Below are positions 1 through 58,636 of a stretch of 64,000 nt of DNA, in pieces. Location of the stretch: the NCBI GenBank assembly GCA_964406465.1, contig CAYORT010000002.1, positions 58,414-122,413 on the forward strand, read 5' to 3'. The translations under genes and the position numbers were made by a program. The DNA comes from an uncultured Chryseobacterium sp. Its GTDB lineage: Bacteria > Bacteroidota > Bacteroidia > Flavobacteriales_C > GCA-002722245. The notes under the pieces were generated by a model, which saw nothing but the letters and a program-made list of their open reading frames with translations, was not told where the DNA came from and did not search any database. The first letter of the stretch is position 1. Every line of letters begins with the position of its first letter.

Positions 1-18
1 TTTAATTGCACTCCTTAT

Positions 19-65
19 CACCCTCTCCATTCGGATGACTTGCTTACTGTGGCAATTGCATTGCC
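19..65 (+). repeat. REP-like element copy C: degenerate hairpin followed by GACTTGCTTACTGTGGCAATTGCATTGCC
   Basis: Aligns at about 80% with the copies at 1016-1063 and 1797-1844. It lies immediately 3' of the minus-strand gene 81..887. Confidence 0.6.
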
Positions 66-80
66 TCTGCTTCGCTTAAA

Positions 81-887
81 CTATCTGGTTCTCAATCTGC
101 TTCCGCCTGTTCTCGAACCGCTGTTATTCGAATTACTTGATCGAGTACTTTTTGTTGTTGAAGAACTACTGTTTGATTTTGAAGTTTGAATATCTGTCCA
201 ATCTATCATTATTACCAAACCTAAGCGATAACTAAACATTTCATATTTAGGTGCGCTCCCTACCGAAGGCATATAAACGAAATAGTCGTCACTATATACT
301 TTCGAAAAATCTACAAACTTAGTTGGACCACCAGTGCTGTAGCTAAATGATAGCTCTAGTGCTACATTGTCATTAAATCCATATAACAGTCCGGTAGTAT
401 AACTTTGATTCCATGTGCTAGTGCTATTTGCAGGATTAGAAGTTGGAACTTGACTATTGTTAACAGGGGTTACAGCGCTATTATACACATGATTATAAGG
501 GGTAAACTCATCTTCAAATCCGGTTAATAGAAGTCCATACGAATACTCAACAAATGGCTTCAATTTATATCGATTAAACACCATACGAGTTGCTAGATTT
601 AGCTGACCAACGGTGTTGTAAATGTTTTCTGAACCATCTTTTAAATGATAAGTTTCATCTCCACAGCCCACGAAATCGAAGGTAAATCCAGTAATTCCCT
701 GCACGTATTTGTTTTTGAGTCCGCCTAGCAGCGCAAATCCCCCCGTCCAACCAGAAGTGGGATAATTGTACTTTCTTAATTCGGCTCCAGGCGCGGCAAA
801 GCCACCTCTCGGACTCAATATCAATTGAGCGTTTACCGCGCTCACACTTAAAGTTAATGCCAATAAAAAAAGTATTCTTCTAACCAT
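81..887 (-). CDS. Outer-membrane beta-barrel protein (porin-like) with a Ser/Thr/Asn/Arg-rich low-complexity C-terminal tail
   Basis: Signal peptide MVRRILFLLALTLSVSAVNAQ. Alternating aromatic/hydrophilic beta-strand pattern. The barrel-like end ...VIMIDW is followed by about 45 aa of S/T/N/R-rich tail. Confidence 0.5.
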   Translation of the reverse strand: MVRRILFLLALTLSVSAVNAQLILSPRGGFAAPGAELRKYNYPTSGWTGGFALLGGLKNKYVQGITGFTFDFVGCGDETYHLKDGSENIYNTVGQLNLATRMVFNRYKLKPFVEYSYGLLLTGFEDEFTPYNHVYNSAVTPVNNSQVPTSNPANSTSTWNQSYTTGLLYGFNDNVALELSFSYSTGGPTKFVDFSKVYSDDYFVYMPSVGSAPKYEMFSYRLGLVIMIDWTDIQTSKSNSSSSTTKSTRSSNSNNSGSRTGGSRLRTR

Positions 888-1015
888 AACCGATTGATTT
901 TAAAATAAAATTGATTGTAAAGCCTGCATTTGAAGACAAAAAGCAGACCAAATAAAATGCAAAGACTGAAATTTCATTTTGGGTGATAAAATAAAATACT
1001 TTATTGGCTTCCTGG

Positions 1016-1063
1016 CACCCGCCTCTAGACGGGTGACTTATCTACTCCGGCAATTGCATTGCC
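1016..1063 (+). repeat. REP-like element copy A: hairpin CACCCGCCTCTAGACGGGTG plus GACTTATCTACTCCGGCAATTGCATTGCC
   Basis: Inverted repeat CACCCG/CGGGTG followed by a conserved tail with a CAATTG core. It lies in the gap between convergent-oriented minus-strand genes. Confidence 0.65.
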
Positions 1064-1094
1064 TTTTATCTATGTCTTCGTAGAGGCAAAAATT

Positions 1095-1763
1095 TTAATC
1101 AATCAATAAAAGACTTCCGTAATTTGCTGGAATAATTTCTTGGCCATATTTCTTTATATAACTTTCAATCTCTTCTTCATTCATTTTGTAAATATCGCAA
1201 CCAAGTTTTTTAAATGGGATTTCTAACCTGTCATATCCATAAAGATGCCCTTCACCTCCCATATATATAACTAATTTCGTTTTGGTTATCCCATAATTAA
1301 TGTTTGCATTACCTCCACCGCCATAATAATAAGCCTTGCTACCGTATACATCATTTGTATCTTCTCGATAAAACTTCTGAACAAAAGGATGCATTTTTTT
1401 TCTATCTATAAAAGGCAGAGGGAGAACTATTTCAGCCTTAATAGGATCAATGCAAACTGAGGAATAATAACTTACTTTAAAATTGTTTCTAATTCTAAAT
1501 TCAAAACACACAAGACTATCTGAATTGAATAAAATTGAATATTGACTATGACAGCAATCTCCTATTATATCGCCAAAATAATCTCTTAGCAATGCATTTA
1601 TCTTCTTAACCGATGAATCAGGCGCCTCAGAAACCAAAACAGGATAATGATATTTACAACCGTTCGTATCGACCATTAGAGAATCAATAATTTGATAAGT
1701 ACCTGCGGAAGAATATAAAAGGTTGGTTAGAAAAAAACTTGTAATAAAAATATATTTCTTCAT
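1095..1763 (-). CDS. Secreted hypothetical protein, possibly DUF4163/DUF3298 (RsiV/PdaC-like); flanked by inverted REP-like copies
   Basis: N-terminal signal peptide MKKYIFITSFFLTNLLYSSA. YHYPVL and Gly-rich motifs are present. No catalytic motif is recognisable. Confidence 0.4.
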   Translation of the reverse strand: MKKYIFITSFFLTNLLYSSAGTYQIIDSLMVDTNGCKYHYPVLVSEAPDSSVKKINALLRDYFGDIIGDCCHSQYSILFNSDSLVCFEFRIRNNFKVSYYSSVCIDPIKAEIVLPLPFIDRKKMHPFVQKFYREDTNDVYGSKAYYYGGGGNANINYGITKTKLVIYMGGEGHLYGYDRLEIPFKKLGCDIYKMNEEEIESYIKKYGQEIIPANYGSLLLID

Positions 1764-1796
1764 AGTACCAATGTAAATTTCGCAACCCTTAAAAGA

Positions 1797-1844
1797 GACA
1801 ATACAATTGTCGGAGTACGCAAGTCACCCGTCTGGAGACGGGCG
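1797..1844 (-). repeat. REP-like element copy B (inverted orientation relative to copies A and C)
   Basis: Its reverse complement reads CGCCCGTCTCCAGACGGGTGACTTGCGTACTCCGACAATTGTATTGTC, about 80% identical to copy A. It sits directly after the stop of gene 1851..4196. Confidence 0.65.
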
Positions 1845-1850
1845 CCATAA

Positions 1851-4196
1851 TCACATCTTCAATACCACAAATTCCACCCTTCTATTCGCAGCCTTACCTT
1901 CATCAGTTGTATTAGGTGCCTTCGGTTTTGTCTCTCCGTAACCTTCAGATTGCAGGCGCTTTTCTGAAATACCTTTTGCAATTAAATAGTCCATGCAAGC
2001 CTTGGCTCTGTTTTTAGAAAGTTCTAAGTTTTTTGCATCGTCGCCCACGTTATCGGTATGACCGTGAATTGCGATATCTACCTTAGGGTTTTCAATTAAG
2101 AATTCATACAGTTGATCTAACACCAATTTAGATGCTCTGGTAAGCTCATAAGAGTCATTACCAAAAACGATGTCGTTCAAACGAATAGGTTTCTTCACTT
2201 CCAAAGCCTCAACCGTAATAGATGCTTTAGAGCCACGAATGGTTTTAGATCCATCAATCTCCTTGGCATTGAGTTCAACAACTTTACTTGAAAATGATTT
2301 CTTCTCTGTTTTAGCTGTAACAACATATTGTCCGTCGGGAGCATTCAACTCCTCTTCATCTTTCTTCACTATTTTCTCTTCACCATTCACCACCACCTTT
2401 TTGTGATCCACCGGTATCACCACCTCAATGCCTTTGATAGAATCTTTCTTCTCACCCGGCTTTAAAATTTGCTCTTTACCATTGATCTTTTCTACGTGTG
2501 AACCAAATTCTGCTTCCACTTCTTTTCCTCCAACTTGCAACACCACTTTTCTATCTTCGGTCTTATTTCTGTTAGGATCGGCCACCGTCATCACCGCCAC
2601 ATATTCACCTGTCTTCTTATCTACTGTAGCTTCGGTTATTTCACCTGTTTTCGCATTTTTAATTTCTACTTTTCCATTTTGTAATGGCGCTCCTTTCTCA
2701 TCTTTCAAAACACCTTTCATCATCACTACTTTCTCGGGACGAGCTTGCTCGTATAAAGGAAAATTAATGATTTGCAAAGCACCATTCGCTCCGTTAGTGA
2801 TACCACTAGATAAGAAACCATATTTACCATCTAAACTAACAATGAAGCCATGCTCATCTGCCGGAGTGTTGATGGGCATACCCAAATTCACTGGCGTCAT
2901 CCAGTTGCCATAATCATCCATTCTGGTGTAGAAAATATCGAAACCTCCTAAGCCCGGTAAAGCATTCGAGCTAAAATATAATGTCTTGCTATCGGTGTGT
3001 AAGAAGGGCGTTTTTTCGTGACCTTTGGTATTGATTACATTGCCTAAGTTTTTAGGTGCCGACCAAGAACCATCTTTATTTTTTGTGATCATAAAGAGGT
3101 CCATTGAGTATACAGGTTCATCCAACTCATTTAAAGAGAACATTGACGAATTTCGCGCACTAGAAAAAATAATCATTTTACCATCGGAAGAGATAGTAGG
3201 TTGTCCCTCCCACGTCATGTTACCACCTTCATCGTTCGCCACTCTTAGAGGACGAAATTGAGTCCATTTTCCATCCACTAAATCGGTGTAATAAATACTT
3301 GTGTTGGTCGCTTTGGTATTTCCTGTAGGCACCAATAATTTCACTGTCACATAAATTCTCTTGTTATCGGGAGTAACGCAAATACCGCCATTACCTAAAA
3401 TCTCTCCGCCATCTAAAGTACCGTTAAAATCGTTGAAAGGCATTGGCATTGGAGTACCCGTACTGAACGAGTCTACCCAAAGTTTTGTGGCTACAGTGAA
3501 GTACTCTTTCTTGTCGTTTCCGGGTCCGGCAGGCAACATCGGATTAGGAGTACCAGCCATTTGACGCACCAAATACAACTGCTCGTTATCGGGAGATAAT
3601 GCAGGTAAATATTCGTTATCCAAAGTATTTACACCCTTCACAGGTGATGGATTGTAAGGAACAGGATTCTTCAAAATCTTATCGATTGCAACACATTCTT
3701 TATACAGTCGGCGCGCAACCTCCTCATTATTGGCAGTGGTATTCCATTCATCATCTAAATAGGCTTTAAACAAAGGAGCTGCTTCAGAAAGTTTACCTTC
3801 CATATGATAGATGGTGGCTAAGTAGAAAGAACCTAGGTGACCACTAAAGGCCGGACAAAGTTCATTGAGTTTAATGAAATAGTCTTTCGACTTACCAATG
3901 AAAATTTCCTTTTTTGAGGCATCGCTATTCATTGCTACTCTCGACTTCCCCTTCTCGGGAAAGGCCAATTCAAAATAATGTCTACCTAAAGCATAGTAAG
4001 GCTCGGGCATTTGAGGATCAAGCTCAATCACCGCTTTCAAAAGATTTACTCCTTCTACTTTGTCTTTTGTGTAAGTAGCAATAGCAGCGTCGTACTTCTT
4101 TCTAACTTTCTTAGGTGCTTTGTATTCACAGTTTCCCTCTTGCGCCAATACGTTAACCGATAACAACAACAATATTACAACCCCGATTCTTCTCAT
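1851..4196 (-). CDS. PorE-like envelope protein: TPR, TolB-like PD40 beta-propeller, carboxypeptidase-regulatory-like domain and OmpA_C peptidoglycan-binding domain
   Basis: Signal peptide. TPR-like N-terminus. PD40 repeats such as DGKMIIFSSARN and DSKTLYFSSNALPGLGGFDIFYT. C-terminal OmpA_C motif IVFGNDSYEL...HGHTDNVGDDAKNLELSKNRAKA...GYGETKP. Confidence 0.75.
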   Translation of the reverse strand: MRRIGVVILLLLSVNVLAQEGNCEYKAPKKVRKKYDAAIATYTKDKVEGVNLLKAVIELDPQMPEPYYALGRHYFELAFPEKGKSRVAMNSDASKKEIFIGKSKDYFIKLNELCPAFSGHLGSFYLATIYHMEGKLSEAAPLFKAYLDDEWNTTANNEEVARRLYKECVAIDKILKNPVPYNPSPVKGVNTLDNEYLPALSPDNEQLYLVRQMAGTPNPMLPAGPGNDKKEYFTVATKLWVDSFSTGTPMPMPFNDFNGTLDGGEILGNGGICVTPDNKRIYVTVKLLVPTGNTKATNTSIYYTDLVDGKWTQFRPLRVANDEGGNMTWEGQPTISSDGKMIIFSSARNSSMFSLNELDEPVYSMDLFMITKNKDGSWSAPKNLGNVINTKGHEKTPFLHTDSKTLYFSSNALPGLGGFDIFYTRMDDYGNWMTPVNLGMPINTPADEHGFIVSLDGKYGFLSSGITNGANGALQIINFPLYEQARPEKVVMMKGVLKDEKGAPLQNGKVEIKNAKTGEITEATVDKKTGEYVAVMTVADPNRNKTEDRKVVLQVGGKEVEAEFGSHVEKINGKEQILKPGEKKDSIKGIEVVIPVDHKKVVVNGEEKIVKKDEEELNAPDGQYVVTAKTEKKSFSSKVVELNAKEIDGSKTIRGSKASITVEALEVKKPIRLNDIVFGNDSYELTRASKLVLDQLYEFLIENPKVDIAIHGHTDNVGDDAKNLELSKNRAKACMDYLIAKGISEKRLQSEGYGETKPKAPNTTDEGKAANRRVEFVVLKM

Positions 4197-4204
4197 ATTA
4201 TTTC

Positions 4205-6907
4205 TTAAAACTTAATTCCTTTCAATGCATTTTTCGCTTTATCGGCGGCGTCTTTTTTCAACTTATCGGCCTCGGCTTTGGCCTTTTCTTCAGCAATTTT
4301 CTTTTGCTTATCAGCTTCCGCTTGCGCCTGTGCCTTCAACTCATCTGCCTTCTTTCTAGCCTCTTCCTCAGCTTGCTGTTTTAATTTATCTGCCTCCTCT
4401 TTTGCTCTGTCCACCACAGCATCTTTAACTTGATCTTTTACTGATTTACCTGCTTCACCACTTGTTCCTTTAGGATAAACGGCAAATTTCGGATTCGTTA
4501 CATCTCCAGTAATTTTTATATCTAAATCGATGAACTGAGGAAGCTGCATATTGGCGCCAACTTTTTGGTTCAATGCGCCCATCAACTGAGCAGCTTGTGC
4601 GTTGGCCGCACCACCAAATTCATCACGATTGATGCTTGTAGCCATGGTGTAATCCATTTTACCATCTAAGGAATTCCAACCGCTTACTTTGGCTTTCGAT
4701 TTACTAACTTTTAAATCGAAAGGTTGAACATTCAACTTACCTTGAGAAATGGTATAATAAATTTTCAAATCTTTCAACTCTAAGTTTTTAAACTTGTCGT
4801 TCTTCACGGCAGCAGCAAAACCTTCGGTGAATTTTGAATCTTTGATTTTAGCATTTTGAATAAACAAAGTTCCTTTACCGTCGATGCAATTGTAATCAAC
4901 ATCCATAGTCGAAGTAAAATTGTTTTTTACATCTAAAGTCATGTTCAATTTACCTTCGGTATTCGCGCAAATTGGAGCCAACTTTTTAATGGTATTGAAA
5001 TTAGCATAAGCCTTAGGAATATCTAAATTCTTTACCTCAAATTGCAAATCGGCATAAGGTTTTTTAATGTCGAGAGCGTGGTATTGACCAGATAATTTAA
5101 AGTCGGCATCCAACAACTTAAAGCCATTGTTTACAAACTTCAACACTCCTTCTTTTAATATCAACTGACCACCAAAATTGGTGATATCGTAAGTATCATA
5201 CTTTATCTTCTTCAAATCTGAAGTAAGCACAAAATCAATGTTTTTTGGAATTTCCACTGCGCCTTCCGCACCAGCAGAAGCGGTATCAGAAGGAGTTGCA
5301 GCTGCAGCAGAGTCGGCCTCGGCCGCATCTTCACTCATGAATTGGTTCACATCGAAATAATTAGATGAAATAGCGAAATTTCCTTTTACCGTTTCATCTT
5401 TAAAATAGTAAGCCAGGTAATTTTCAATTTTACCGCTTGCATTTAAATCGCTATTTCCAATTTTACTTTCGAAAGTAGTTAAGTCAAGGTATTGTGGAGA
5501 AAACAACAAGTTTGCTTTGGTGATGGTAACATCGGGCATACCTTCCATTTTTGTTTTAATATCTAACAAATCAAGCGAACCGTGTGCATCAAATTTTTCG
5601 TATTCTTCCTTTTCAATAGCCGAATATCTGCCGTTTAAACTTACATCGGCTTTTACTGTTCCATGATATTCTTCGCCTTTTTCCAAAGGCATCACTTCAC
5701 CAATAACATCTAATTTCAGCATGGTTTTGATGTTACCTTTTATTGCAGCATCCGACTCGGGAGTTTTAATATGCATATCCATATCAATAGGATATTCGCC
5801 CAGTTCGGCATGCAATTTATTTAAATCGATTACGGTATGATCAAAAACTCCATCGGGATTGTTGATAGCCAAATCTATATTGATATTGTTAACCGCTTTT
5901 GGCACCGAAGGATAGCGGAAAGAAGAATTAAGCACCTTTAAATTGAAACCGAAAGCAGGCATCAACGAGTCGGTAAACATACCTTTCAAATGACCATTAA
6001 TCTCGAACTTACCTGTTGTTTTAACATCTTTCACATCTTCTCGATACACTGCAGGAATCATGGTAAATAAATCCTTGAAATCGGTGCGCTTAGCATTGAA
6101 TTTCAAGTCCATACCAAAACCTTCATCAGGCATAGAAAACCATCCATCTAAGCCCAAAGCCACATTATTTAAATTGAATTCATTGTTTTTGAAAGTGAAT
6201 TTCCAAGTCGCCAAATCCATGATTAAATCGGCAGTAATATTTGTTTTGGCATTTTTGATATAACTAACACCATCGAAATTGACTGTTAAAGCTTGCATGT
6301 CGGTTTTAGTAGACATAATGTGTTGATCCCCGTCCAACAAATAAGAACCCGAATGATTCATATTGGTAAGTTCCATTCTATAAGGAATAGATGGATCATC
6401 GTAAACGATACGCGCATTGTTAAGTGCATATTTTTCAAACACCATGGCGAAAGGATCACCCGCTTCTTCTGGTTCAACCGGTTCGGGAGTGGCCGCAGTA
6501 TCGGGCAACATAATATCTGTTAGGGTAAAATTCTTGCCGTCTTTGGTCCACAATGCATTCAACACCATTCCATCGGCTTCAAAAGAGTTCACCTTGTACT
6601 TTTTACCATCAAGAACAGAGTTGATGTCTAACTCTAAATTCAACTCATCGGCATAAACGATAGTGTCTTTATCGAAAGCACCTTTGCCTATAACCGACAC
6701 TTTTTCTATATCTAATTTAAAATTGGGGAAAGTAGAAATGATAGAAAGGTCGAAATCACCAAAATCAACCTTAGCATTAAGGTTCTCGTTGGCCACCTCT
6801 TTTACTTTGGCTACTATTTCATCTTTAAAGAAAAAAGGAATAGCCGCAACAGCAGCTACCAAAACCACAATAAGGATAAGGAATCCGATTAAAATTTTCT
6901 TGATCAT
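4205..6907 (-). CDS. AsmA-family outer-membrane biogenesis protein with a Lys/Ala/Glu-rich coiled-coil C-terminal tail
   Basis: N-terminal membrane anchor MIKKILIGFLILIVVLVAAVAAIPFFF. About 800 aa of beta-rich repetitive region. C-terminal EEADKLKQQAEEEARKKADELKAQAQAEADKQKK... Stop overlaps the aroC start region, suggesting an operon. Confidence 0.55.
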   Translation of the reverse strand: MIKKILIGFLILIVVLVAAVAAIPFFFKDEIVAKVKEVANENLNAKVDFGDFDLSIISTFPNFKLDIEKVSVIGKGAFDKDTIVYADELNLELDINSVLDGKKYKVNSFEADGMVLNALWTKDGKNFTLTDIMLPDTAATPEPVEPEEAGDPFAMVFEKYALNNARIVYDDPSIPYRMELTNMNHSGSYLLDGDQHIMSTKTDMQALTVNFDGVSYIKNAKTNITADLIMDLATWKFTFKNNEFNLNNVALGLDGWFSMPDEGFGMDLKFNAKRTDFKDLFTMIPAVYREDVKDVKTTGKFEINGHLKGMFTDSLMPAFGFNLKVLNSSFRYPSVPKAVNNINIDLAINNPDGVFDHTVIDLNKLHAELGEYPIDMDMHIKTPESDAAIKGNIKTMLKLDVIGEVMPLEKGEEYHGTVKADVSLNGRYSAIEKEEYEKFDAHGSLDLLDIKTKMEGMPDVTITKANLLFSPQYLDLTTFESKIGNSDLNASGKIENYLAYYFKDETVKGNFAISSNYFDVNQFMSEDAAEADSAAAATPSDTASAGAEGAVEIPKNIDFVLTSDLKKIKYDTYDITNFGGQLILKEGVLKFVNNGFKLLDADFKLSGQYHALDIKKPYADLQFEVKNLDIPKAYANFNTIKKLAPICANTEGKLNMTLDVKNNFTSTMDVDYNCIDGKGTLFIQNAKIKDSKFTEGFAAAVKNDKFKNLELKDLKIYYTISQGKLNVQPFDLKVSKSKAKVSGWNSLDGKMDYTMATSINRDEFGGAANAQAAQLMGALNQKVGANMQLPQFIDLDIKITGDVTNPKFAVYPKGTSGEAGKSVKDQVKDAVVDRAKEEADKLKQQAEEEARKKADELKAQAQAEADKQKKIAEEKAKAEADKLKKDAADKAKNALKGIKF

Positions 6908-36824: not shown

Positions 36825-37643
36825 ATGAAATTAAACTTAACTCGTCCGCTGGCTTTCTTCGACTTAGAAACGACAGGAACTGATATATCAAAAGATAGAA
36901 TCGTAGAGATTTCCATTGTGAAAGTGATGCCCAATGGTGATAAAGACAGTAAAACACGTCGCATCAATCCAGGCATGCCTATTCCAAAAGAAGCTTCTGC
37001 TGTTCATCATATTTACGATGAAGACGTTAAAGACTGTCCTCTGTTTAAAGCTATTGCCAAAAGTTTACACGACTTCTTAATCGGCTGCGATATAGCAGGA
37101 TTCAACAGCGATAGATTTGATATTCCTCTTTTGGCTGAAGAATTCTTAAGAGCAGAAATTGATTTTGATTTAAGCGACCGAAAAACCATTGATGTGCAAA
37201 ACCTATTTCACAAAATGGAGCAACGTACATTGAGTGCTGGATATAAATTCTATTGTGGTAAATCGTTAGATAATGCCCACAGTGCCCTTGCCGATACAGA
37301 AGCTACTTTAGAGATTTTAGAAGCAATGCTAGATCGTTACGAGCACACCGAAATAGAAGACGAAAACAAAAAACTTTACAAACCCATCGTTAACGATGTT
37401 GCTAAACTACAAGCCTTCTCTAAACGAGATAAAAATGTAGATTTAGCCGGTAGAATTGTATTCAATGAAAACAACATTGAAGTATTCAACTTTGGAAAAC
37501 ACAAGGGCAAACCGGTTGAATTGGTACTCACTCAAGAACCATCATATTACGCTTGGATGATGGATGGCGATTTCCCTCTTTACACCAAAAAAGCATTAGA
37601 GAAAATTAAGATTAGATTATTGCAGAATAAGTTGAATTCGTAG
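36825..37643 (+). CDS. DnaQ-like 3'-5' exonuclease domain protein
   Basis: Exo I motif FFDLETTG. Conserved H..ALADT (Exo III). Confidence 0.8.
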   Translation: MKLNLTRPLAFFDLETTGTDISKDRIVEISIVKVMPNGDKDSKTRRINPGMPIPKEASAVHHIYDEDVKDCPLFKAIAKSLHDFLIGCDIAGFNSDRFDIPLLAEEFLRAEIDFDLSDRKTIDVQNLFHKMEQRTLSAGYKFYCGKSLDNAHSALADTEATLEILEAMLDRYEHTEIEDENKKLYKPIVNDVAKLQAFSKRDKNVDLAGRIVFNENNIEVFNFGKHKGKPVELVLTQEPSYYAWMMDGDFPLYTKKALEKIKIRLLQNKLNS

Positions 37644-37668: not shown

Positions 37669-37781
37669 GCACATCCCGGTAGAGACGAATTGCATTCGTC
37701 TTAAATAAAAAATCTTCCGTTGTTAAGGAAAAGGAATTAATCTTTTTAAGACGAATGCAATTCGTCTCTACCGGGATGTGT
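37669..37781. repeat. Perfect 35-bp inverted repeat (GCACATCCCGGTAGAGACGAATTGCATTCGTCTTAA ... reverse complement) separated by a 42-nt AT-rich spacer; each arm also contains its own 8-bp palindrome
   Basis: The arms at 37669-37704 and 37747-37781 are exact reverse complements. The element lies between convergent genes ending at 37643 (+) and 37788 (-). Confidence 0.85.
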
Positions 37782-37787
37782 AATCAA

Positions 37788-38633
37788 TCAAAACAAACTC
37801 CCCTGCACCACAACCTTCTCTGCTTCCACTTCCAACACCTCAACACTAATCACATAGCCACTGTGTTTGCGAAGATTAATCACATTGCCATTGCTAAACA
37901 TTAAATACTGTCCACGTATTCCCTGTAATTTACCTTCCACCACTGCTTCTTTATCGAAGCCTACACTTTTTATTTTTTCGAGATATGCCTCTACCGGATA
38001 TTGAATATCGATAATCTTATCGTCGTCATCGGCATATTCCATGAGATCTTCGGGAAGTTTATCTATTAAAGAATTTTTAAGTTTTACTAAATCCACATCT
38101 TCTCCCCTTTCATCCTTCAGCATTTTCTGCCAGTTGGTCTTATCTGAAATATATTGCTTGAGTTCTATTTCTATTAGTCCGGCCAGTTGACGATAAGGCA
38201 CCAAAGCCAATTTTATTCCTTTGCGTGCACCCTGATCAATCCAACGATTGTGCAAATTAGAAGCACGTGTTACACCCACTTTCACATCGCTGGTTTGTGC
38301 GATATATACATAATGTGGAACGTTATGATTTTTCTCTTCCCATTCTACATCTCTACCTTGATGTTCGTGTGCCATACATAGCTCTGGACGAACAATGCAC
38401 TCTGAATTATCGGGAGATTTCAAAAAACAAGGATAACAAAAACCTTGTCCGAATGATTTATTCGTTTTCTTATCACACGCTACACAACGAATTTCATTTT
38501 GAAAAGTGAGTCGAATATTTTTACCAATAAAATCGTTGATACAAATCTTTGAATGGTCATGCTGAAGATAGTATCTAACCGGATTTTGCAACTCCACCGG
38601 CATCTTCTCCAGCTTTCCTTGCCACACCATCAT
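37788..38633 (-). CDS. Conserved hypothetical protein with a CxxC...CxxC zinc-ribbon (DUF2797-like)
   Basis: CVAC and CYPC motifs and conserved His/Cys in ...LCMAHEH. No enzymatic motif is recognisable. Its stop overlaps the upstream DUF493 gene, suggesting an operon. Confidence 0.4.
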   Translation of the reverse strand: MMVWQGKLEKMPVELQNPVRYYLQHDHSKICINDFIGKNIRLTFQNEIRCVACDKKTNKSFGQGFCYPCFLKSPDNSECIVRPELCMAHEHQGRDVEWEEKNHNVPHYVYIAQTSDVKVGVTRASNLHNRWIDQGARKGIKLALVPYRQLAGLIEIELKQYISDKTNWQKMLKDERGEDVDLVKLKNSLIDKLPEDLMEYADDDDKIIDIQYPVEAYLEKIKSVGFDKEAVVEGKLQGIRGQYLMFSNGNVINLRKHSGYVISVEVLEVEAEKVVVQGSLF

Positions 38634-58036: not shown

Positions 58037-58636
58037 ATGAAATCTACATTAATACTTATATTTCTTTCGATTACTTCTCTTTTCTTGAGCGCTCAAGACA
58101 CCTTGTCGGGAGGACAGCTGAGCTTAGGAGGCAGGAGCACCTTAAGCTTATTCGACTCAGATGGATGGGGCCTTGGAACGGGCGGGCAATTTAGGATTCA
58201 ATTAAGCAGCAGAGCAAATACCGATTGGTTTGCCGACTACATCAGCATTAATGTTCAAGATAAAATTCGCAGCGAATATTATCATATCGGATGGTCGGTG
58301 CTATTTTACCCAATTAAAAATACGCGAAATATTCAACCCTATGTTTTGGCCGGACATTGTTTTGATTACAATAAAAAAACAATACTAACCTCTAACACTT
58401 CACTCAATCGCTGGGGATCGGCAGTACAAGGAGGATTAGGCACTCACATTCATTTAAGCAAGCGCTTCGATATTTCTCTCACATGCCAGTATATGATTCA
58501 CCTCACAGCAGAACTCGAATCAGTGATCAACGGAAGCAATGTTTCTATTGTGAAAGGAAACACCAATACCTTTGAAGGCCATATGCTAAGCACTTTAAGT
58601 GTAAACTATAAATTATTTCATTTATGGGGAAAATAA
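58037..58636 (+). CDS. Small outer-membrane beta-barrel protein (OmpW/porin-like)
   Basis: Signal peptide and beta-strand periodicity. Confidence 0.45.
   Translation: MKSTLILIFLSITSLFLSAQDTLSGGQLSLGGRSTLSLFDSDGWGLGTGGQFRIQLSSRANTDWFADYISINVQDKIRSEYYHIGWSVLFYPIKNTRNIQPYVLAGHCFDYNKKTILTSNTSLNRWGSAVQGGLGTHIHLSKRFDISLTCQYMIHLTAELESVINGSNVSIVKGNTNTFEGHMLSTLSVNYKLFHLWGK

Follow-up and report, generated by a model that had tools for sequence, protein, structure and literature searches.

Three short palindromic repeats lie close together, within 1.9 kb, in the stretch of DNA analysed here, which is taken from contig CAYORT010000002.1 of an uncultured Chryseobacterium sp. (positions 58,414 to 122,413; "the window" is this whole stretch, 64 kb in length). 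The three copies are very probably single arms, i.e. repetitive extragenic palindromic (REP) units, of a REP/REPIN (REP doublet forming hairpins) family in a freshwater Flavobacteriales lineage. This identification is carried by two observations: the first hairpin of the arms matches published REPs of Bacteroidetes, and a gene for a REP-associated tyrosine transposase (RAYT) was found flanked by arms of the same family in two relatives. Together these point to a REP/REPIN family with its REPtron. The original prediction had likened the repeats to REPs or bacterial interspersed mosaic elements (BIMEs), and that comparison is upheld by these two observations, by the dispersal of the family in relatives and by its occurrence there as inverted doublets. 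The kind of element is already known; what is added is a further REP/REPIN family, not a new system.

The family members in the window are three arms of ~52 nt, designated A, B and C (Table 1). All three are present where they had been predicted: a 27-nt core pattern, CGGGTGACTTNNNTACTNNGRCAATTG, gave three matches with at most one mismatch, against 0.00 expected from 100 shuffles. Over 48 nt, A and B are 81% identical, A and C 71%, and B and C 73%, close to the 75–80% first claimed, and on its outer side each copy runs 4 nt beyond the limits initially given, through the sequence (A/C)TGG. When the 64 kb were scanned with a covariance model with filters off, the arms obtained the scores listed in Table 1 and the next match only 8.5 bits, so that the whole window holds no family copy beyond arms A, B and C. 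Each copy lies 3' of a minus-strand gene, as had been noted, with B 3 nt from the stop at 1851, A ~30 nt from the stop at 1095, and C ~14 nt from the stop at 81. The last of these stops belongs to a 268-aa gene, and arm C sits between it and the stop codon of a Tex-like gene, which is convergent and lies just outside the window on the left. Arms A and B do form the inverted repeats described around the open reading frame (ORF) 1095..1763, as a pair of 55 nt that is 82% complementary. Folding of the copies had also been proposed; as single-stranded DNA, arm B gives -11.2 kcal/mol (z=-3.4), arm A -11.8 kcal/mol (z=-4.8), and arm C only -5.8 kcal/mol (z=-2.0).

Structure and covariation of the arms

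Relatives of the window were drawn from related metagenome-assembled genomes (MAGs) and freshwater metagenome contigs; their loci are designated by L numbers (e.g. L008). Covariation was assessed on 36 distinct arms, aligned without gaps over 57 columns, which have the consensus (A/C)TGGCGC-NNGTC-TCCA-GAC-NN-GTGAC-N5-TACTCC-G-RCAAT-NNN-ATTGY-C. An arm thus opens with the foot (A/C)TGG and continues with a GC-rich hairpin of 8 bp that includes a G.T wobble, the linking sequence TGAC-N5-TACTCC, and a 6-bp hairpin. Under this two-hairpin model 97.6% of pair positions are paired, compared to 32–42% when the 3' partner is slid by 1–3 columns. Double-sided (compensatory) changes are seen in 7 of the 14 pairs (one pair, for instance, occurs as CG, GC or AU, and a second as GC or AU), and the observed covariation was matched by none of 500 shuffles.

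The conserved tail of the arms, GRCAATTGYATTGYC, is the second of these hairpins, with 6 bp (GGCAAT TGC ATTGCC). Its CAATTG centre had been put forward as a possible protein-binding site, but the data favour a base-paired hairpin and not a duplex operator: across the 36 arms hairpin 2 is 99.5% paired, with compensatory changes in four of its six pairs. One such change is seen within the window, where GGCAAT/ATTGCC has become GACAAT/ATTGTC in arm B. In hairpin 1, the second pair is G.T in 29 of the 36 arms and G-C in two. As a G.T pair becomes an A.C mismatch on the complementary strand, this indicates that the structure is strand-specific. We also see that the two partner arms of a doublet always differ in hairpin 2, which is 64% identical between them, yet is 99% locally paired in each; hairpin 1 is 90% identical between partners. 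That the partners differ in hairpin 2 while each keeps its own pairing implies that the hairpins themselves are the conserved feature.

A vestige of such a partner is seen beside arm A, where the motif TGTCTTCGTAGAG has its one occurrence in the window. In L005, L007 and L034 the same motif is found downstream of an arm, and there it continues into a hairpin and GAC; the L005 equivalent (2331-2363) is a weak match to the covariance model. TGTCTTCGTAGAG is thus what remains of an eroded partner arm, and arm A was once part of an inverted doublet.

A separate observation concerns exchange of the first hairpin. In two comparisons (L014 1740-1795 with L038 3888-3943, and the left arms of L002 and L004), orthologous arms of closely related genomes are identical save for hairpin 1, which is swapped wholesale: TCCGTC-AGCT-GACGGA replaces CGCGTT-TCCA-AACGCG, so that three stem pairs and the loop change together. 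This pattern suggests conversion from other family members, and not point mutation.

Dispersal, doublets and the transposase gene

A survey of relatives for further copies, with attention to intergenic bias and orientation, had been recommended, and it yielded 9 genome loci and 22 metagenome contigs, in which the elements are always intergenic and mostly arranged as +/- pairs. The genome loci come from a scan of species-representative genomes with GACTTNNNTACTNNGNCAATTGNATTG; seven of them lie on separate contigs of the MAG CAMBXP01, one in CAMDPJ01, and one in a 'Flavobacteriales bacterium' MAG. Copies per genome therefore stand at seven by the strict pattern, on seven contigs, for CAMBXP01, and at three within 1.9 kb for the source genome, of which 64 kb were sampled. 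The metagenome contigs were found with a pattern centred on hairpin 1; many are from JGI (Ga...) and others from assemblies titled marine metagenome. Viral contigs gave zero matches to the arm pattern. Applied to the fetched loci, the covariance model located 60 arms in 31 loci, over 240 kb.

The majority of these 60 arms occur in the usual form of the family, which is an inverted doublet with a + arm followed ~15–30 nt on by a - arm. Doublets are 120–141 nt in length and have sharp ends, (A/C)TGGCGC...GCGCCA(T/G), beyond which the flanks are unrelated. At three different loci of one MAG (L006, L008 and L009), the doublets share 91–93% identity across 123 nt, spacer included, but their flanks only the ~50% of background, and whole doublets at different loci are in general 91–96% identical despite unrelated flanks. 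The window itself has singletons only, with arm A keeping its partner vestige. No target-site duplication could be seen in 14 doublets, as direct repeats of 2–9 nt outside the ends were at zero or chance level at any offset; what look like repeats at inner offsets come from the palindromic GCGC of the termini. Immediately beyond the ends, the four bases on the left are rich in pyrimidines and the four on the right in purines, so that the palindrome fades instead of stopping abruptly.

All the elements lie outside ORFs, most of them no more than 30 nt from a stop codon. Their neighbours, 84 proteins, are ordinary housekeeping enzymes, and the best 25 of the 118 families matched include no recurrent transposase. 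A homodimeric doublet folded as single-stranded DNA is predicted to form a long stem, in which ATGGCGC...GTGAC pairs with its counterpart in the other arm and TACTCC with GGAGTA, and which carries the two second hairpins side by side at its tip (-44 to -49 kcal/mol, z ~-12 to -13). For the heterodimeric doublet at L004 the predicted fold is a cruciform of local hairpins. There was no match to Rfam 15 at the gathering threshold, either for the window or for loci with doublets, and at a permissive threshold only sub-threshold generic matches to long-hairpin microRNA-precursor models were returned. A weak Rfam match in the window, to RT-16 at 301-486 (+) inside the 268-aa ORF, scored 25.5 bits against a gathering threshold of 50 (E=0.41) and was taken as chance.

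REPs flanking the subclass-2.6 tnpA_REP genes of Bacteroidetes have been described as 'atypical secondary structures' (Quentin et al. 2018, PMC6006769). In Additional file 2 of that paper they are given for Aequorivita as GCTGG-CGCGGGCG-TCC-CGCCCGTG, for Flexibacter as CTGG-CGCAAGGT-TCT-ACCTTGTG-C, for Spirosoma as GCTGGCGCGAGC-ATAT-GCTCGTGCC, and for Zobellia as GCTAGCGCTCGTA-TTT-TACGAGTGC. Hairpin 1 of the present family, (A/C)TGG-CGCGGGTC-TCCA-GACCCGTG-AC, matches the Aequorivita REP at 19 of 24 bases.

The transposase gene was found at L043, where the order is the 3' end of recG, an arm (361-415), an ORF of 183 codons (447-995), a further arm (1006-1062), and the start of a reversed partner. 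If Leu is read at its one in-frame TAA, the ORF reaches 98.6 bits with the NCBIfam model NF047646, 'REP-associated tyrosine transposase' (cutoff 80), and 42.7 bits with the Pfam family Y1_Tnp, PF01797 (cutoff 23); the IS200 model stays below its cutoff. The protein has the motifs NHIH, WQ and YIHNNP, the signatures tabulated for RAYT subclasses 2.6 and 2.4 (PMC6006769), and its nearest solved relative is a 140-residue chain in the Protein Data Bank named 'transposase' (2xm3, E=0.002). A second trace of the gene is found at L008, in the MAG with doublets: the contig starts with an arm, an open frame follows whose end reads ...LEYIHNNPVKQEIVFLPENYLHRSASDY...*, and ~30 nt past its stop there is a doublet. 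The fragment is the C-terminus of an L043-type protein: it aligns over 26 residues at the C-terminal end of NF047646 (E=7e-4), and the L043 protein is its single database relative.

Several features agree with the subclass-2.6 RAYT systems surveyed in PMC6006769. The foot, here (A/C)TGG, is there (G)CTGG or CTAG and not GTAG; the stem of 8–9 bp, CGC...GTG, has a G.T wobble at the second pair and a short loop starting with TC; and the transposase, with NH[LIV]H / WQ / YIH[QN]NP, is flanked by repeats. The YIHNNP of the L043 protein fits subclass 2.4 as well as 2.6. Unlike the subclass-2.6 REPs, however, the hairpin here is only the outer half of a longer arm that adds TGAC-N5-TACTCC and a second hairpin, and the hosts, uncultured freshwater Flavobacteriales, are outside that survey. 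Like the REPINs of Pseudomonas fluorescens and other bacteria (Bertels & Rainey 2011, PMC3116915; PMC3337134), the family has two inverted REP units with a short spacer as its replicating unit; it is likewise extragenic, multi-copy and vertically persistent, with singletons as doublet remnants and a repeat-flanked RAYT as presumed mobiliser. It differs from them in number, with at least seven strict-pattern copies in one MAG where Pseudomonas has hundreds, and in form, as the doublet is predicted to fold into a long stem tipped by two small hairpins whereas the Pseudomonas REPINs have a GTAG foot and a simple long hairpin. As in the GTAG/CGTC REP dimers, or BIMEs, of E. coli (Di Nocera et al. 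2013, PMC3733652), head-to-head dimers predominate and heterodimers of two sub-types are common, and DNA inserted between dimer partners is noted in that paper; the sequence family is another one, in which the GTAG and CGTC tags are not conserved. A parallel can also be drawn to the subterminal hairpins of IS200/IS605 elements and of their miniature derivatives, where a Y1/HUH enzyme acts on hairpins in single-stranded DNA, target duplication is absent and the DNA between the ends moves (PMC6006769, background). Unlike IS200/IS605, whose ends are not inverted copies and whose own transposase is present in many copies, the protein here is of RAYT type.

To our knowledge, research on REPINs and RAYTs has dealt almost wholly with Proteobacteria. 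For the Bacteroidetes, the account in PMC6006769 goes no further than the 'atypical secondary structures' beside subclass-2.6 RAYT genes. The present data add a covariation-supported model for uncultured freshwater Flavobacteriales, consisting of the composite two-hairpin arm, the heterodimeric doublet and the REPtron, and the look of decayed family singletons is now documented. The arms also account for contig breaks in MAGs (L008 starts inside an arm), and they mark a strain-variable islet of envelope-protein genes. Beyond routine annotation, only the recurrence of an arm-gene-arm arrangement and the breakpoints at arm ends could lead further.

The Tex–OmpA locus across strains

The arms of the window alternate with small genes in the order Tex-like gene (convergent, ending just left of the window, and 93% identical to the Tex gene of L005), arm C, 268-aa gene, arm A, 222-aa gene, arm B, and OmpA-family gene (Table 1).

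Table 1 Arms of the repeat family and neighbouring genes in the window
Feature	Position	Strand	Description
Arm B	1797..1848	-	best-preserved copy; covariance model 78 bits, E=2.8e-21
Arm B, foot	1848-1845	-	ATGG
Arm B, hairpin 1	1844-1825	-	CGCCCGTC TCCA GACGGGTG
Arm B, linker	between hairpins 1 and 2	-	TGAC-TTGCG-TACTCC
Arm B, hairpin 2	1811-1797	-	GACAAT TGT ATTGTC
Arm A	1012..1063	+	foot CTGG, hairpin 1, linker, hairpin 2; 73.1 bits
Arm A, hairpin 1	1016-1035	+	one internal mismatch
Arm A, hairpin 2	1049-1063	+	GGCAAT TGC ATTGCC
Partner vestige of arm A	1073..1085	+	TGTCTTCGTAGAG; truncated beside stop codon of 222-aa gene
Arm C	14..65	+	eroded copy; 49.1 bits; foot lost
Arm C, hairpin 1	18-37	+	largely decayed
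Arm C, hairpin 2	51-65	+	intact
268-aa gene	81..887	-	outer-membrane-like protein; no Pfam family; between arms A and C
222-aa gene	1095..1763	-	signal-peptide-like N-terminus; no Pfam family; arm B 5', vestige and arm A 3'
OmpA-family gene	1851..4196	-	781-aa protein with TPR and PD40 repeats; conserved; stop abuts arm B

Homologues of the 222-aa protein form only six clusters, all of them at this locus. Two of the loci, L033 and L034, are conspecific with the window, at 96–100% nucleotide identity across the OmpA-family gene. Within flanks of this identity the 222-aa gene is hypervariable, with 62–75% nucleotide identity in a mosaic pattern, and the block in which L033 departs from the window has its end within the 222-aa gene, not at arm A. 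The 268-aa gene is present in L033 and L034 and absent from L007. L007 lacks both small genes; its OmpA-family protein is 85% identical, and the interval between Tex and the OmpA-family gene holds one arm, a vestige and a palindromic element of another family. In L035–37 a 223-aa gene lies between arm B and an inverted partner vestige. Judged from these strain comparisons, the Tex–OmpA interval is a strain-variable islet of small envelope-protein genes.

Arm B is present in the window, L034 and L035–37, and in L033 an unrelated palindromic element stands in its place; L033 has an identical arm A and L034 a degenerate one; every copy of arm C is eroded, with 49 bits in the window, 54 in L033 and 27 in L034. 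The presence of orthologous arms in strains with 222-aa alleles of only 61–75% identity, together with the falling scores and the vestige, indicates that the arms are old, orthologous and decaying. Singletons have been described elsewhere as remnants of dimers (PMC3733652). Part of the islet may have been copied locally: the 3' flank of arm C in the window, TAAGCGAAGCAGA, recurs in L034 after the stop of a 216-aa gene, ahead of the partner vestige and the degenerate arm A, and this shared flank hints at a local segmental duplication in a recombination-prone islet.

In the MAG CAMBXP01 the same locus has a further peculiarity (L005 2147-6202). A hipB/hipA-like pair lies between the complete Tex gene and the arm, and after the arm a fragment of the Tex C-terminus (...RIGLSMKSV*) is found a second time, as if an inserted segment had carried a Tex 3' end of its own.

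Mechanism, competing readings and other repeats

The replicating form is the inverted doublet of two arms (the REPIN). In the mechanism that we propose, this would be, or once have been, copied around the chromosome as single-stranded DNA by the RAYT, an HUH/Y1 enzyme. By analogy with RAYTs and IS200/IS605 transposases (PMC6006769), the enzyme would bind the hairpin in single-stranded DNA, with the foot bases positioning cleavage, and the doublet would be moved or copied without target duplication. Copies near the 3' ends of genes would be tolerated and hence persist, and they may serve as hairpins at transcript ends. On this view the arms of the window are old, vertically inherited relics at differing stages of decay, with B intact, A lacking most of its partner, and C with hairpin 1 largely decayed.

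A number of points weigh against a REP/REPIN identity for the three arms. At L043 (447-995) the in-frame TAA comes directly after the HuH motif NHIH; at L008 (1-201) an arm lies 8 codons before the Y motif, there are stops in all frames, and the contig starts inside the arm. Both RAYT copies look damaged, and the system may be extinct or dying, or the damage may reflect assembly errors. A regular expression for the HuH and Y motifs detected no RAYT gene in the 64-kb window, and it also gave zero matches over the DNA fetched before L043 was added, the pattern needing the HuH motif that the L008 fragment lacks. Genome-wide spread and the RAYT are seen only in relatives, the data for the source genome being the 64 kb. 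The foot is ATGG or CTGG and not the canonical GT[AG]G, in which it is like the subclass-2.6 feet GCTGG, CTGG and CTAG. No transposition event, empty site or cleavage was observed. Finally, there are three arms in 1.9 kb and zero in the other 62 kb, for which uniform placement has a probability of ~3 x (1.9/64)^2, or ~0.003; such non-random clustering calls for an added local factor, e.g. segmental duplication or a hot spot.

Among other explanations, the arms could be primarily functional RNAs or terminators, kept alike by selection on RNA structure and not by mobility, which we regard as unlikely. The arms do lie near stop codons, covariation is strong in both hairpins, several copies have a T-rich tract after hairpin 2, and REP elements are known for mRNA stabilisation and transcription termination (PMC6006769, background). 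A terminator scan also flagged arm A, but only its hairpin 2, and on the non-coding strand, opposite the genes. Arms are found in both orientations relative to the upstream gene (B forward, A and C reversed), and for doublets the ratio is 7:2 when arm types are scored strictly, a bias that is not significant. The conserved G.T wobble would become an A.C mismatch in the reverse transcript, and Rfam contains no such family. In doublets, the arm encountered first is not followed by a consistent U tract; on the coding strand of arm B, a weak hairpin rich in AT precedes UCUUUU. Dispersal is instead indicated by doublets that are nearly identical although their flanks are unrelated, and by the RAYT gene with arms on either side, and an RNA or terminator function is compatible with the REP/REPIN reading as a secondary, exapted role. 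We give virtually no credence to a chance likeness of three local terminator hairpins, which has nothing beyond the 3'-end position in its favour and is refuted by the zero matches expected, by the conservation of unpaired motifs, and by the additional copies, more than 60, that come from metagenomes and other genomes. A classical miniature inverted-repeat transposable element (MITE), i.e. a deletion derivative of a DDE insertion sequence whose ~50-bp terminal inverted repeats are read as duplex, would share with the doublets their length, long inverted termini and sharp ends. It is nevertheless a very improbable identity: the expected 2–9 bp target-site duplication is absent at any offset outside the element, and partner arms that differ in hairpin 2, and sometimes in hairpin 1, each keep their own pairing, as hairpin recognition and not duplex recognition would require. 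Moreover, no recurrent DDE transposase is found among the 84 neighbouring proteins (best 25 of the 118 matched families), and the sole transposase found flanked by arms is a Y1/HUH enzyme.

The original prediction also raised the idea of a MITE-bounded cassette around the 222-aa gene. A related possibility is that arms and enclosed gene can be mobilised together, in effect as a REPtron with cargo, the RAYT moving or exchanging DNA between or next to arms, so that these form slots for small secreted-protein genes; we consider it quite unlikely. In its favour, one topology (forward arm, ~30–60 nt, ATG, gene, stop, reversed arm) surrounds three unrelated genes, namely the RAYT of L043, the 222-aa gene of the window, and a 202-aa lipoprotein-like gene by purH in L014, L038/L039 and L040, the proteins of which are 75–100% identical. 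Both flanking arms of L040 have a rare hairpin-1 variant in common, and the 223-aa gene of L035–37 is bracketed by arm B and the partner vestige. The outer end of the reversed arm is where similarity between L014, L038 and L040 stops, exactly or to within a few bases, and the slot beyond contains a 206-aa outer-membrane-protein-like gene, an unrelated 169-aa gene, or no gene. No similarity was detectable among the 222-, 202-, 268-, 206- and 169-aa proteins when these were compared. However, every cargo gene is found at one chromosomal locus only, and the 222-aa-type gene is kept in L033 without arm B and in L034 with a degenerate arm A, so that presence and absence in strains gave no fixed arm-gene-arm unit. 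The partner of arm A in the window is the vestige and not arm B, the replaced block ends inside a gene, as ordinary homologous recombination would give, and a distant 202-aa homologue has no arms. Bracketing by A and B does not, on this sequence evidence, support the 222-aa gene as a demonstrably mobile cassette, and a MITE-bounded one is further at odds with the lack of target-site duplication. That three unrelated genes have one topology in common, and that breakpoints coincide with arm ends, does keep alive the doubtful proposal that the arms are more than relics and their outer ends preferred junctions for the gain, loss and exchange of small envelope or secreted-protein genes; a cargo gene would then take the position of the transposase gene in a REPtron-like frame, with the RAYT as a cassette-shuffling enzyme for host genes.

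Integron attC cassettes were also considered and rejected, as B is inverted relative to A and C and the family is elsewhere scattered singly among housekeeping genes. The neighbours listed (best 25 of 118 matched families) include no integrase.

Other palindromic repeats were seen in the course of this work. At 37670-37780 the window contains a different REPIN-like doublet, present there in a single copy, with two 36-nt arms that are 100% complementary and 39 nt apart. Its arms have a canonical GTAG foot and an 8-bp hairpin, GTAG-AGACGAAT-TGC-ATTCGTCT, and it lies between the convergent genes 36825..37643 (+) and 37788..38633 (-). GTAG-headed, GC-rich palindromes (GTAGGGGCGAGC... and GTAGGGGCGTACCC...) are present at L003 ~2900-3000 and L009 ~4860-4940; they are probably a canonical GTAG REP family in the MAG. 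A third palindromic family, GTTCCTTCGGAGTACCTCAGGATGACAACC ... GGTTGTCATCCTGAGGTACTCCGAAGGAAC, is absent from the window and is found in relatives at L033 3423-3530, L007 ~265-375 and L001 ~705-830. In L033 and L007 this is the element that fills the spot of arm B downstream of the OmpA-family gene.

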